Assembly (NCBI GenBank): GCA_965214095.1 | Contig: OZ243938.1 | Span: 4,224,001 to 4,288,000, forward strand | DNA length: 64,000 nt | Reading direction: 5' to 3' | DNA from: Candidatus Poribacteria bacterium | GTDB taxonomy: Bacteria; Poribacteria; WGA-4E; WGA-3G | In this document: piece after piece, positions 49,374 through 54,912 of the stretch | Numbering within the stretch: position 1 is the first letter of the stretch | Layout of the letters: each line of letters starts with the position of its first letter | Notes under the pieces: generated by a model | The model's database searches: none | What the model was told of the DNA's origin: nothing | What the model saw: the letters and a program-made list of their open reading frames with translations, nothing else | Translations under genes and position numbers: made by a program

Positions 49374-51347
49374 ATGAGGACTTTATCAGACAAAATCACA
49401 CTTAATCTTGACGATGGTGCAGAAGTGTCCGTCAAAGGCTTCATCGCGCCGATTGAATACACACAATACAACTACTATGTCAAATGGGATGCATTGGCAA
49501 ATCTGCGCGCAACTGAACCAGAGAAACAGTATCTCACTTCAATTTTCACTGATTTTCTACCCAGTTGTAACATTGCTGTCGGTGATTTTTGGGAAGTTAA
49601 GCAAGATGGTGTATTGGAAATACTAAAGCAACTTCATCCAAAACCGAATGTAGATATGCACCTGAATGCGGGAGATTCTTGTGGCCTGTGGGCATGTCTC
49701 CGCGCATACAATGATGAATATGCCGACATCATGTTTCGTCTACATGCTGAATTCCAACTAAAAAACGGTTGGTTCACACCATCTCAATTTAAGGGTAATC
49801 TAATAATTGATCGATGCAATGGTAGAATTGCCAGTTTTAAGATGTATGTTCCAAAGGGTGTACTAAATTTTGATGTCAACTGGCATACGACATTGGAAGG
49901 CGATAGCGAACCTTCATGGTGGACTGATATCGGATACTGTCCACAAATGGAACTCCGCGCAGGAAATGATGCAGGTCCAAATAGTATAGAATTCACGGAA
50001 TTCATTTCACAGGAAGATGCAGAGCACAGACTGATACGTTGTTTTTACAAATCACAGCAAATCAATTGGGTTTCCTTGGAGGAAGCACTGAAATTGGCAC
50101 CAACCCTACAGAAACCGATCCATGCTATTTCAATAGATGGACCACTGGCAGACGAATCCTGCTGAGGGAGTGGTAAAAGTTTGAGGGCAGGTGTCCTCTC
50201 TAATGAGCAAATTATTACATTCTTGAATGAAAACTTCATCAATACATGGGTGCCTAATGCAGAATTGGGACGAATCCGAAGTTTGCGAGAACCGATAGAA
50301 AAAAGACGATTACAAGAAGGCAAAACATTCAACAAAAACCATGAGTTAGCACAAACTATCATTAAGGGATGGAAAACCGGTACGAAAAAAGGTTCGCCGA
50401 TGGATTGTTTCGTCATATCACCAGAGTTTGAACTGATGGGTAGACAACTCGTGAATGACTTGGACGATGACCGTAGAAATAGAGCATTACCATCAGAAGA
50501 GGCTTATTATCTTACATTTCTCAATGATGCATTGGAAGGAAAACAACCAGGTTTGGGGAATGTTGTTCTGACCTATGACAATCCTTCTCACGAGTTATCG
50601 GATGTTATTAGAACTTCCTCAGAAAACAATCAGAATCTAACTATTGTCATGATTGATGCCAGATCTTGTATAAACGGAGGTATATTGATCATTGACATTC
50701 TAATGGGCAGAGATGATGCAGAAGGTGCATTTTATTTATGTGACGGTGATTATATACTTCCCACGGATAGAGAAGTATCGGAGAATGATAGTCTTGCATG
50801 GACTTGGGGTGAATCCGATGAGACACTTCAGATAAAGCATCAATTCAACAGTGGACAATTTTTCAAGTTAATTGCTACACGTTATTGGGATGAGGATATT
50901 CCTTATATCAATGCATTTCACGCTAAAATTTCTGTAGAAGAAAATGCTCCAACTGGTATGAAGATTGTTCTTGATAGAGAACAACCGAAACAGAAGGCAT
51001 TAGAGACTTTTCGTGCACCTGGACATGGATATCAGGATTATACTGTTGTCAATATTGATACATTAGCGTTTGGTAATGGTGGAATACTAACAATTGAAAT
51101 TCAAGTTGGTAATGCAAAAGCATGCGGGTCGTTTGATCTGTTTGATGATGACACAAAACTGCCGACAAAAGGTACACCAAAGGAAGCACTCAGTTCTGCA
51201 TGGGGAATTGAACCCGGGAACAATGGTACAATCACACACGGTTTTGAGAAAGGTAAGGTCTTCAAGCTTGGTGCTACAGGCGACTGGTTTAGTAAGAAGG
51301 GAGATATAAACGCTTTTCACGCGATTATTTCTGTAAAGGAAAAATAA
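49374..51347 (+). CDS. Selenoprotein N-like protein 1 (657 aa; UGA 50163-50165 = Sec264; SCUG); two C-terminal repeat domains
   Basis: Track ORFs 49374..50165 and 50181..51347 are in frame and joined by TGA GGG AGT GGT AAA AGT, giving DESC-U-GSGKSLRAGVL; SECIS-like hairpin follows. Confidence 0.88.
50183..50198 (+). promoter_or_regulatory. Putative bacterial SECIS apical stem-loop 1
   Basis: GAGGGC-AGGT-GTCCTC starting 18 nt after the UGA. Confidence 0.72.
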
Positions 51348-52883
51348 ATGAATACAACAAGCAAAATATCGATTAATATAGAAAACGAAGAAAAAGTAAC
51401 TGTCAAAGGCTACATCGCACCTATTGAAGACATGAAACCTAACTTTCACGAAGAATGGGATGCGTTGGCGAATATGCGTGTAAACGAACCAGAAAAGGAA
51501 TATAACACAACGGATTTCCAAGCCTTTCTTCCCGGTGAACCTGTTGCTATCGGTGATTGTTGGCAGATTGAAGAAAATGGGGTATTGGAGCTTCTCAAAC
51601 AATTGAATCCCAATCCGAATCTGGATATGCATATTAATATTGGGGATTCCGCTGGATTGTGGGCATGTCTACGTGCATATAACGAGCAACATGCTCATAT
51701 TGTGTTTCGTATTCATGCAGAATTTCAATTAGAAGATGGATGGTTCACGCCTTCTCATTTTGCGGGAGATCTTATTATTGACCGGAACAAACAGGATGTC
51801 GTTTCTTTTCGTCAGTGCGTTCCTGAGGGAAAATGGTTTGATGTAAATTGGAAAAAAGATAAAGACGATCCAAACCATTATTATAGTACAGCTTCCGGTG
51901 TATGTCCAAAAATTGAACTATATGGCGGTTTGCGAGATTTACAGAAAGATACAAAATTTGCTTTATCTATTACACAAAAAGAAGCAGAAGAGAAACTAAA
52001 AAAACAATTCTACAAATCAGAGCAAATAAACTGGGTTCCCTTTGAGGACGCAGTAGAATTAGCACAGGCACATCAGAAACCGATCCATGCATTATCTATT
52101 GATGGACCGCTTGATGATGAAGCGTGCTGAGGCAGCGGAAAAAACTTGAGGGCAGTTGTCCTCTCCGATGACCGAATTATCAATTATCTAAATGAAAATT
52201 ATATCAACACATGGATACGTACTATTGAGTTGAGAAACATGCGTGATACATTGGGATATCAACAAATACACCCCTTGGCGTGGGCTATCATCAGTCATAA
52301 ATGGCGTAGAGGTCCTGTAGACTCTTGGATCATATCCCCAGAACTTGAAGCAATAGGACATGTCCCGATCAATGAATACCTTGGAGAAAACAGACGTGAA
52401 GACGGCACACTTGAAAGTGATAATTACTTGTTGTTTCTCCAAGATACCTTATCAGGAAAACTGCCTGGATTAGGGAATATTGTTTTCACTCCCGATAATC
52501 CATCACATACAGTATTAGACGTATTTCGCACACCAGAATTTGGACATCAGGATTATACCGTTGCTGTTATTGATACGACTGCATTTAAGAGCAAAGGCAC
52601 ACTGACTATTGATATAGAATTGGGCAACGATAAAGCGTATGGTTCATTCTTTTTGCTTGATGCAGACCATAAACTGTCCTTTGATGCTGATAATAAACGA
52701 CCAGATGGTAGCATGTTTGATGGTGCACACGACGTTGGTTGGTATGATCCGTGTGAAATAGGACAGATGACACATCAATTTGAACAAGGACAAATATATA
52801 AACTGGTTGGTATGGGATGGGCATCTAACGAAAAGGGAAGTATTAACGCATATCGAGCAAAAATCACTGTTGAGGTAGAATAA
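51348..52883 (+). CDS. Selenoprotein N-like protein 2 (511 aa; UGA 52128-52130 = Sec261; ACUG); one C-terminal repeat domain
   Basis: Track ORFs 51348..52130 and 52146..52883 are in frame, giving DDEAC-U-GSGKNLRAVVL. Confidence 0.88.
52148..52163 (+). promoter_or_regulatory. Putative bacterial SECIS apical stem-loop 2
   Basis: GAGGGC-AGTT-GTCCTC at the same offset. Confidence 0.72.
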
Positions 52884-52884
52884 A

Positions 52885-54912
52885 ATGAAAATCAATCTAA
52901 AACTAAATGATAGCGAAAAAATATCAGTCCAAGGATACATAGCACCGATTGAATACACACAATACAACTTCCATGTTGAATGGGACGAACTCGCAAATCT
53001 ACGTGTTGCAGAACCTGAGAAGCAATATCCTTTATCAATCTTTCAATCTTTTCTACCATTGGAACCTGTTTCGGTCGGTGAATGTTGGGAAATTCAAGAG
53101 GAAGGTCCATTGGCTTTACTAAAACAACTCTACCCACGTCCAGTGCTGAAACTGGTTATTGATTCAGGGGATTCTTACGGTCTGTGGGGATGTCTACGCG
53201 CTTACAACGATAGGTATGCTGAAATTATTTTTCGTATTCATGCAGAATTTATCATGAATAATGGTAAGTTTACACCATCACAATTCGCAGGACATTTGCA
53301 AGTTGACCAAATTAAGCAGGAAATTGTGCATTTCAAGATGTATGTGCCTCCTACTACACTGAACTTTGATGCAGGTTGGACACGGGAAAATGAGGATACT
53401 TGTGCTGAAATCGGATATTGTCCAAGAATGGAACTATCTGCGGGGGATTCTGTCATTAAAACAGAATTTATTGAGTCAATACCCCAAGGCGAAGCGGAAC
53501 GTGCACTGATATTACGTTTCTACAAATCACAACAGATAAACTGGGTATCTTTGGAAGAAGCGATGGTACTTGCAACGACACAACAGAAACCAATTCACGC
53601 TATTTCCACCGACGGTCCACTTGCGGATGAGTCCTGCTGAGGGACTGGTAAAATCTTGAGGACAGGTGTCCTCTCTAATGAGAAAATAATAACGTTCTTG
53701 AATGAAAACTTTATCAATACTTGGGTTGCTAATGCAGAATTAGGACGCACCGGTAGTTTACAGGAACCGATTGCCAAAAGACGTGAACGTGAATGCATCA
53801 CCTTTGATGCCTCACACATCTTAGCAAAAGTAATTATGAAAGGATGGGTAAAAGGCTCACCTGTAGACTGTTTTGTTATATCGCATGATTATGAATTGAT
53901 GGGTGGTTTAGATTACAATGAGTTCCTTGATAACTTAGGGAGAATGCACGATTTTGATGCATACATGTCATTTCTCCAGGATTCAATGAATGGAAACCGT
54001 CCCGGTTTGGGAGATGTTATTCTTACGCCAGAACAATCATCACAAGAGGTATTAGACACAATATCAACTCCAAAGAAAGCACATCAGGACTATACAGTTA
54101 TCGGCATTAATACAACTGCGTTTGAAAACGGAGGCACGCTTATTATTGATTTCCAAGTTGGCAGAGATGATGCAGTCGGCTTATTTTTTCTGCTTGATGG
54201 AAATAGAAAAATCCCATCTGAGAAAGTTCCTGAAGGTATTGACCCAGCAGCATGGCACAGTCAAGAAAGTGATGAATATGAGAAGGCTCTTGATGCACTT
54301 GCTTATTGTTGGGGTGTATTTCCAAACGAAACCAGTCAACTAAAATACGATTTTGATAAAGGTCAACTGTTTAAATTATGTGTTACTGGAGATCAATGGG
54401 GTGGAGCCGGTGCAATAAACGCTTATGTCGCTAAAATAACCGTTGATAACAAAATAGATGTCTCATCGAAAATTGACAAAACTGAAGATGAAGAGGGTAT
54501 TGTTACTCCCATTTCAAGTGAGATAAACGTAGTCCTTGATAAATCACATCCTTCCAAAGAAGTATTAGACATTTTTCGTGCACCAGGAAGTGAGAAACAA
54601 GATTACACCGTTCTCAATATTGATACAACCGCATTTCAAGATGGTGGATTACTTTCTATTGACATACAGGTAGGTGGTGCAAAGGCTTACGGATCATTTG
54701 ATCTCTTTGATGAAGATGCGGAACTGCCAACAGAAGGAATTCCAGATGAGGCATTGGAATCTGCATGGGGAATTGAACCCGATACAAGTGATAATATAAA
54801 ATACCGTTTTGAAAAAGGCAAAATTTTCAAGTTAGGTGCTACCGGAGATTGGTATAGTAACAAAGGTGACATCAATGCCTTTCATGCCATTATTTCAGTG
54901 AAGGGAAAATGA
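52885..54912 (+). CDS. Selenoprotein N-like protein 3 (675 aa; UGA 53638-53640 = Sec252; SCUG); two C-terminal repeat domains
   Basis: Track ORFs 52885..53640 and 53656..54912 are in frame, giving DESC-U-GTGKILRTGVL. Confidence 0.88.
53658..53673 (+). promoter_or_regulatory. Putative bacterial SECIS apical stem-loop 3
   Basis: GAGGAC-AGGT-GTCCTC, fully Watson-Crick, same offset. Confidence 0.72.

Follow-up and report, generated by a model that had tools for sequence, protein, structure and literature searches.

Does a stretch of DNA that reads as six open reading frames (ORFs) hold six short genes, or three longer ones in which an internal TGA codon is translated? The question is raised by positions 49374 to 54912 of the window, that is, of the whole 64,000-nucleotide (nt) stretch analysed here, which comes from contig OZ243938.1 of a Candidatus Poribacteria bacterium. 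A preliminary description of this DNA had proposed that the six frames are three tandem genes for selenoproteins, each cut in two at a codon for selenocysteine (Sec, U). Following our analysis, we consider it highly likely that the six ORFs are three intact, tandemly duplicated genes belonging to bacterial relatives of selenoprotein N (SelN), that their UGA codons are decoded as selenocysteine, and that the products are probably redox proteins with a Cys-Sec pair.

Under genetic code table 11 the plus strand presents exactly six ORFs, arranged in three pairs (49374-50165 and 50181-51347; 51348-52130 and 52146-52883; 52885-53640 and 53656-54912). The ORF table bears out what had been described, namely that each pair is broken by a TGA directly after a Cys codon, that the same frame continues beyond it, and that the downstream ORF starts with a TTG 15 nt past the TGA. 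When the TGA is read through, three ORFs of 657, 511 and 675 amino acids (aa) result, each with a single internal TGA at the same site within the motif S/A-C-(TGA)-G-S/T-G-K, despite a pairwise identity of only 49-53% among the three proteins. The tight packing of the genes also stands in the sequence, the TAA of gene 1 abutting the ATG of gene 2 with 0 nt between them (51345-51350) and the TAA of gene 2 being followed by 1 base (52884) and then the ATG of gene 3. Co-transcription of the three genes is suggested by this spacing. The contrary reading is that the TGAs are true stops, so that the N-terminal domain on one side and the thioredoxin-like and C-terminal domains on the other would be made separately, by termination and re-initiation at the TTG, and might associate afterwards. 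It agrees with the six table-11 ORFs and with public gene callers, which yield the split form, and we nevertheless regard it as very improbable in light of the evidence on the site codon, the RNA and the protein fold given below.

A six-frame search of 41 related genomes detected the family to which the genes belong in 32; a single genome had as many as 14 matches, and almost all of the matches listed contain exactly one TGA. A profile made from 28 sequences found it in 117 of 151 genomes across the phylum at E ≤1e-20; by taxonomic family, it was present in 97 of 99 genomes (f1), 9 of 10 (f2), 10 of 26 (f3) and 0 of 15 (f4-f9). Among 124 distinct family windows the site codon is TGA in 119, a Gly codon (GGA or GGC) in four and the Trp codon TGG in one, and it is never TAA or TAG; three GGT matches to the regular expression (L019, L022 and L028) lie in another frame, are not members of the family and were excluded from the window counts. 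A hundred complete family ORFs from the related genomes present the same picture, with an internal codon that is TGA in 95, Gly in four, Trp in one and TAA or TAG in none. The terminal stops of those 100 ORFs are mixed (TAA 44, TGA 43, TAG 13), and the conservation of the internal TGA is therefore far beyond chance. This tells against the TGAs as plain stops, which would drift among TAA, TAG and TGA.

The same sequences bear on another possibility, that the genes are decaying pseudogenes that share a nonsense mutation by chance. Nothing besides the stop itself favours it. Both halves are open and conserved at 33-76% identity in more than 100 copies from several families of the phylum, most of the matches have no other stops, and we give decay next to no credence. 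Homology is continuous across the junction in more than 100 homologues, as the preliminary description had anticipated.

Constraint is seen also at the level of single nucleotides around the site. Cys immediately ahead of the UGA is encoded by TGC in 95 of 95 cases, while elsewhere in these genes Cys is encoded 284 times by TGT and 181 times by TGC, and the Gly codon after the UGA is GGG in 64 of 76. The context UGC-UGA-GGG (50160-50168, 52125-52133 and 53635-53643 in the window) is under synonymous constraint throughout the family. Beyond each UGA of the window a hairpin is predicted, with a stem of 6 bp and a 4-nt loop A-G-G/U-U, the stem beginning 18 nt and the apical loop 23 nt past the UGA; the G-U pair in the stems of genes 1 and 2 is an A-U pair in gene 3. 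A selenocysteine insertion sequence of the bacterial type (bSECIS) has a loop of 3-9 nt, a stem of 4-16 bp, a G in the first two loop positions, a spacing of 16-37 nt and a minimum free energy (MFE) that does not exceed -7.5, according to the Fig. 2 legend of PMC13188914, where the consensus of Zhang and Gladyshev is restated. All three window hairpins lie within every one of the limits given in that legend (PMC13188914). A scan of positions 49300-55000 against Rfam at E ≤10 returned no SECIS family, only implausible matches below threshold.

Because the hairpin overlies a conserved peptide, L-R-A-G-V-L, constraint on the RNA was tested separately. Codons +6 to +11 show a collapse of codon entropy: GGT encodes Gly in 81 of 82 cases, CTC encodes Leu in 113 of 117, and Arg has only AGG or AGA, whereas at positions a few codons distant these amino acids draw on all of their codons. 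Synonymous recodings have a mean MFE of -3.6 kcal/mol, the hairpins themselves one of -9.1 kcal/mol; in 103 of 119 sequences no more than 5% of the recodings fold equally well. Over 117 distinct sequences, 92.3% of the cells are paired, three of the six pairs change on both sides, and the covariation score is above that of 500 out of 500 shuffles. Registers that were slid along the alignment pair at 45-82%, the 82% being reached at +2, which, as seen by eye, reflects sub-families using a shifted register. Synonymous constraint and covariation thus indicate a SECIS-type RNA hairpin, and this is a further point against termination at the UGA.

A hairpin downstream of a stop codon can stimulate ordinary read-through too, and the natural Gly (GGA or GGC) and Trp (TGG) variants show that standard residues occur at the position. 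Perhaps, then, read-through of the UGA inserts not selenocysteine but one of the standard amino acids (Trp, Gly or Cys), whether through a near-cognate tRNA or because the code is reassigned. We find this hard to believe. The hairpin fits the limits of a SelB-type bSECIS including the loop G, and the site lies next to a Cys, has homologues with Cys in its place and corresponds to the Sec of the animal counterpart as placed in the parts of the SelN review that describe it (PMC12839072). Nor is the genetic code reassigned, as TGA also serves as an ordinary stop, ending conserved genes such as gmk, a PIN-domain gene and gene 3 of the array itself; among the 1367 open frames on the main contig that are 400 codons or longer, 259 end with it.

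The genome, moreover, possesses the complete machinery for selenocysteine, the absence of which would, according to the preliminary description, have refuted its claim. The assembly comprises 5.25 Mb in 4 contigs, the main contig having 41% G+C; selB (355 bits), selA (616 bits) and selD (361 bits) are all found in it above the curated cut-offs, and a tRNA for selenocysteine (anticodon tca) lies about 155 nt downstream of selB. The selD gene has one in-frame TGA and is thus the selenoprotein form of SelD. Across the sample of the phylum selB is present in 146 of 151 genomes, and the only two genomes that carry the family and lack selB are 81% complete. Contig C2 of the assembly (32,066 bases) has 64% G+C versus 41% for the main contig, and may be foreign DNA or assembly contamination.

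In an in-frame UGA, a stem-loop within the spacing limits with a G in its loop, the selA, selB, selC and selD genes and homologues with Cys, the three genes resemble the bacterial selenoprotein genes that depend on a bSECIS. They differ from these in that the SelN-like family is in neither NCBIfam nor Pfam, and in having a vicinal C-U instead of the usual UxxC or CxxU.

When 1.84 billion representative proteins were searched with the profile, 984 clusters were recovered at E ≤0.001, 251 of them at E ≤1e-30. Of 152 database proteins that were inspected (150 listed and two cluster mates), 96 terminate exactly at the Cys, which means that they have been cut at the UGA; standard annotation does split the family, as had been predicted. 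Five proteins from metagenome contigs pass through the site with a second Cys in place of the UGA, four of them with C-C-G-S-G-K (P0127, P0128, P0131 and P0145) and one with C-C-A-T-G-K (P0149). Where the site holds Cys, Gly or Trp, the homologue is one continuous polypeptide, as is animal SelN, and this again argues against the two halves being separate proteins. The N-termini of P0127, P0131 and P0149, the Cys-Cys forms that can be read at full length, resemble signal peptides. Members outside the Poribacteria are labelled Deltaproteobacteria and Planctomycetes. Scans of the three read-through proteins with Pfam and NCBIfam gave no family model and only chance matches below the cut-offs, and the Pfam scan found no flavoprotein domain and no EF-hand in them. 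The selenocysteine interpretation of the preliminary description is thus supported by the Sec machinery, by more than 100 homologues spanning the junction, by homologues with Cys and by hairpins of the SECIS type. Taken together, the TGA very probably encodes selenocysteine, as judged from comparative sequence data.

What, then, are these proteins? The bacterial profile (28 members) matches a 588-aa wombat 'EF-hand domain-containing protein' at E 3.6e-49, together with an EF-hand protein of Nematostella and a jellyfish protein, and in a BLASTP comparison the product of gene 2 matches the wombat protein at 2e-25. We took the wombat record as SelN from its length, its motif and the description of the protein in the pertinent parts of the SelN review (PMC12839072). 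In a profile alignment with hhalign (probability 100%, E 6.8e-51, 346 columns) residues 12-369 of gene 2 (P0002) were aligned with animal residues 153-580, and the alignment passes through the animal ...D-D-Q-S-C-[U-G]-S-G-R-T-L-R, the U-G at the site being skipped or garbled in the animal gene models used. Because the aligned part includes the SelN-specific N-terminal domain, a resemblance to animal SelN limited to a generic thioredoxin fold is unlikely. One bacterial fragment is already named 'selenoprotein N' in a JGI/IMG record. From this homology the three proteins are best assigned to a bacterial branch of the selenoprotein N (SELENON/SEPN1/SelN) family and not to a new one. In the literature that we searched (Poribacteria, SelN, prokaryotic selenoproteins and bacterial SECIS, supplementary files lying outside the search), a bacterial SelN is absent, and a term search of the text turned up no mention of the family in either the BSepDB paper or the review from 2026 on the prokaryotic selenoproteome.

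Human SelN has 590 residues with a membrane anchor, an EF-hand and a thioredoxin-like part, its SCUG motif being at Sec462 and R466 lying four residues on, according to the structural account in the SelN review (PMC12839072). The bacterial proteins share with animal SelN homology over the whole luminal core, which consists of the SelN-specific N-terminal domain and the thioredoxin-like domain, and the motif S/A-C-U-G-S-G-K/R followed by an invariant L-R. In both, a hairpin next to the UGA appears important for Sec insertion, in animals the selenocysteine redefinition element (SRE), as stated in the relevant parts of PMC8704476 and PMC3541580, and in bacteria the predicted SECIS-type hairpin. 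They differ in that the bacterial proteins have neither the N-terminal membrane anchor nor the EF-hand, the alignment starting only at animal residue 153, and add one or two C-terminal beta-sandwich domains. Whereas animals have one gene and use a SECIS in the 3' untranslated region, bacterial genomes hold 3 to 14 tandem or dispersed copies and would use an intragenic SECIS. Because the anchor and the EF-hand are missing, we file the window proteins as a bacterial SelN branch; they are not orthologues of the calcium sensor of the endoplasmic reticulum (ER), and the roles in ER calcium sensing and SERCA protection that the review assigns to the animal protein in the parts concerned with function (PMC12839072) cannot apply to bacteria.

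The domain structure was predicted for the product of gene 2 (Table 1), for which an AlphaFold2 model reached a predicted local distance difference test score (pLDDT) of 83.8 and a predicted template modelling score (pTM) of 0.69. Modelled alone from 60 sequences, the N-terminal domain gave a pLDDT of 93.6 and a pTM of 0.90. No clear relative of it was found in 48,161 solved chains, the best Z of 5.3, to a nitrobindin-like barrel, being within noise. In the middle part, residues 225-371 match DsbH (2ju5) with Z 11.9 and a root-mean-square deviation (rmsd) of 4.0 over 124 aligned residues, and further thioredoxin-like matches are 7tkv (Thioredox_DsbH; Z 11.6), AGR3 (Z 11.2) and UAS domains (Z 9.3-10.0). 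For residues 213-371 the predicted fold resembles the DsbH/UAS-type thioredoxin-fold domains (2ju5, 7tkv, 3ph9, 2dlx and 2ec4; Z 9.3-11.9, 115-133 aligned), although there is no sequence match to these and the SelN-like proteins have no CxxC, their redox pair being the adjacent Cys and Sec. The C-terminal part matches the beta-sandwiches of PliG (Z 11.1), the C-domain of Tk-SP (Z 10.9-11.0) and the collagen-binding domain (CBD) of ColG (Z 10.1), and a second copy of it is present in genes 1 and 3. For Foldseek the VIA-align rows were used, many top rows with an rmsd above 18 being disregarded as meaningless. A sequence-profile search of the PDB found no solved relative, its sole match being OspA, by chance (E 0.12).

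In the model, Cys260 and Sec261 are placed in the loop between the first strand (246-251) and the first helix (265-284) of the thioredoxin-like domain. Termination at the UGA would thus be predicted to break the protein inside this domain, between strand 1 and helix 1, which speaks against two products made separately.

None of the three window proteins has a signal peptide or a membrane anchor, and they begin directly at the mature domain. Among paralogues in other genomes (L051, L057, L060, L061, L069 and L070) the N-terminus is often hydrophobic and resembles a signal peptide, and so the family seems to comprise exported and cytoplasmic members. An extra C-terminal extension of about 100 residues, either after the beta-sandwich or replacing it, was observed in L061:1344-2927, L062:611-2602 and L069:1028-2929.

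Table 1. Features of the selN-like array and associated loci. Positions are those of the window unless a locus label precedes them; other genes are given by their own labels.
Feature	Position	Strand	Remarks
selN-like gene 1	49374..51347	+	657 aa, Sec264; SelN core and two C-terminal beta-sandwich domains
UGA very probably read as selenocysteine, gene 1 (U264)	50163..50165	+	DESC-U-GSGK; context UGC-UGA-GGG
SECIS-type hairpin, gene 1	50183..50198	+	GAGGGC / loop AGGU / GUCCUC; -8.9 kcal/mol
selN-like gene 2	51348..52883	+	511 aa, Sec261; SelN core and one C-terminal beta-sandwich domain
SelN-specific beta-rich N-terminal domain (predicted), gene 2 residues 1-205	51348..51962	+	pLDDT 93.6; best Z 5.3
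Thioredoxin-like domain (predicted), gene 2 residues 213-371	51984..52460	+	Cys260-Sec261 in the loop ahead of helix 1; predicted fold matches DsbH/UAS-type domains
UGA very probably read as selenocysteine, gene 2 (U261)	52128..52130	+	DEAC-U-GSGK
SECIS-type hairpin, gene 2	52148..52163	+	GAGGGC / loop AGUU / GUCCUC; -8.9 kcal/mol
C-terminal beta-sandwich (predicted), gene 2 residues 375-511	52470..52880	+	PPC / collagen-binding-domain / GOLD type
selN-like gene 3	52885..54912	+	675 aa, Sec252; SelN core and two C-terminal beta-sandwich domains; ordinary TGA stop at end
UGA very probably read as selenocysteine, gene 3 (U252)	53638..53640	+	DESC-U-GTGK
SECIS-type hairpin, gene 3	53658..53673	+	GAGGAC / loop AGGU / GUCCUC; -9.5 kcal/mol
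selD with in-frame TGA; selB with tRNA-Sec downstream	G000:C1:1272212-1273138 and G000:C1:4987445-4989589		
Orthologue group with TGA or Gly at the site	L061:4329-6146, L067:4498-6162, L069:4482-6152, L074:4409-6100; also P0004-P0015		

With intact genes, the likely sequence of events is the following. The hairpin after each UGA would recruit SelB carrying Sec-tRNA(Sec), and the UGA would then be read as selenocysteine to give the full-length proteins. These would be built from three kinds of module, the SelN-specific N-terminal domain, the thioredoxin-like domain and one or two C-terminal beta-sandwich domains. The vicinal Cys-Sec pair would sit in the loop just ahead of the first helix, in the place where thioredoxins have their CxxC. 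In the classical thioredoxins and the DsbA-type oxidoreductases a CxxC (or UxxC/CxxU) stands at the start of helix 1; the present motif, C-U-G-S/T, lacks a second Cys at +3. The most likely chemistry would be thiol/selenol oxidoreduction through a reversible Cys-Sec selenenylsulfide, and the N-terminal and beta-sandwich domains would probably hold the substrate or a partner. Selenenylsulfide chemistry of this kind has been proposed for the SCUG of animal SelN and for the GCUG end of mammalian thioredoxin reductase. With the Gly-Cys-Sec-Gly end of that enzyme the SelN-like proteins share a vicinal Cys-Sec followed by Gly, a parallel drawn in the part of the SelN review that deals with the active site (PMC12839072), but in the reductase the pair is on the flexible C-terminal tail of a flavoenzyme, and in the SelN-like proteins it would be inside the thioredoxin-like domain. 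Both the actual insertion of selenocysteine and the redox mechanism are what we infer.

Several observations weigh against three intact genes for selenocysteine-dependent redox proteins, or at least against parts of this interpretation. A GGAG-like stretch is present about 10 nt before each downstream TTG, and re-initiation there is physically possible. Residues other than Cys or Sec at the site, which the preliminary description had held to be incompatible with its claim, do occur, as Gly or Trp replaces the TGA in 5 of the 124 family windows (four Gly, one Trp), the other 119 remaining TGA; the survey of 151 genomes also returned several more matches without a stop, all within one genus. Because such windows and matches exist, selenocysteine is dispensable for some members of the family. 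The Gly and Trp codons are single-base neighbours of TGA inside orthologue groups that otherwise bear TGA, and for this reason the variants are best read as secondary losses. Since the hairpin still folds in the variants, either the L-R-A-G-V-L peptide helps to preserve its sequence or decay has not yet erased it. Taken one sequence at a time, the hairpin surpasses dinucleotide shuffles by a modest margin only (z -1.9 to -2.4, and -0.9 to -1.7 for 70-nt windows). The redox function, likely as it is, rests on analogy.

Evidence from transcription is likewise slight. A 6.1-kb metatranscriptome contig from a relative (90-95% alike) covers the UGA of gene 2 and the junction of genes 2 and 3, and is a weak hint, as DNA carry-over is possible. 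Nothing from the RNA run X6 aligned with the stretch. The DNA-type runs X2-X5 match the stretch near-identically and may be its source, and they are not independent support. Scans for promoters and terminators did no better than shuffles (16 versus 20.4 expected, and 6 versus 4.6), and therefore no transcription unit was drawn from them. The operon that had been proposed is thus favoured by the 0- and 1-nt spacing and by the weak RNA hint, and receives nothing from these scans. The neighbouring genes (leuC/leuD, an AF2212-like/PIN pair, a 4Fe-4S ferredoxin, gmk and coaBC) give no functional lead.

One orthologue group of secreted members, 553-606 aa long, has the TGA in some species and Gly (GGA or GGC) in others, the neighbouring Cys being retained (C-G-A/G-S-G-K). 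The stem of the hairpin is retained in this group, and the loop G is missing in L061. Selenocysteine is usually replaced by Cys, and its replacement by Gly at this site is unusual. In L037:924-2057 the TGA is replaced by Trp (TGG; D-D-E-S-C-W-A-N-G-K), and a stable hairpin is retained there.

Directly upstream of the array, at 48406-49115 (+), the AF2212-like antitoxin-type gene overlaps the PIN-domain gene, forming a VapBC-like toxin-antitoxin pair. A DDE_Tnp_1 transposase gene (41796-43139, -) lies about 6 kb upstream of the array.

The relation between the bacterial and the animal sequences was examined in an unrooted FastTree phylogeny of 112 rows and 281 columns, into which went the 3 genes of the window, 17 representatives from Poribacteria, 3 animal sequences, 5 Cys forms and 84 representatives that are cut at the UGA and at least 240 residues long. 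The window genes fall inside an 18-row Poribacteria clade (support 99), a second Poribacteria clade being separate. The three animal sequences are united in a single clade (support 100) within a 43-row group (support 96) that also holds P0165. P0295, with 86% identity to P0165, carries the label of a protein from a Deltaproteobacteria metagenome-assembled genome. In human the SRE adjoins the UGA and disease mutations are located at codons +1, +4 and +7, as set out in the portions of PMC3541580 and PMC8704476 that treat the element; the Poribacteria hairpin, which lies over the same invariant L-R, spans codons +6 to +11. Perhaps SelN arose in bacteria and reached an ancestor of animals by horizontal transfer, in which case the SRE of SEPN1 would be a remnant of a bacterial SECIS. 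The high diversity of the family (984 clusters), its Sec and Cys forms and the several bacterial labels are compatible with this origin, which we consider rather unlikely as matters stand.

Selenoprotein N is mutated in the SEPN1-related myopathies, a human muscle disease, and its reaction mechanism is proposed, not established. The window proteins are predicted to be soluble because they show neither signal peptide nor membrane anchor, and they model confidently; these bacterial forms might therefore make the SCUG site and the SelN-specific domain accessible to structural work and enzymology. For the bacteria, the family is an uncatalogued and strongly amplified addition to the selenoproteome, systematically split at the UGA by public annotation, and it raises the question why the sponge-associated Poribacteria maintain up to 14 copies of it. 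It also opens the origin of an animal selenoprotein, and possibly that of the SRE hairpin, to direct testing.

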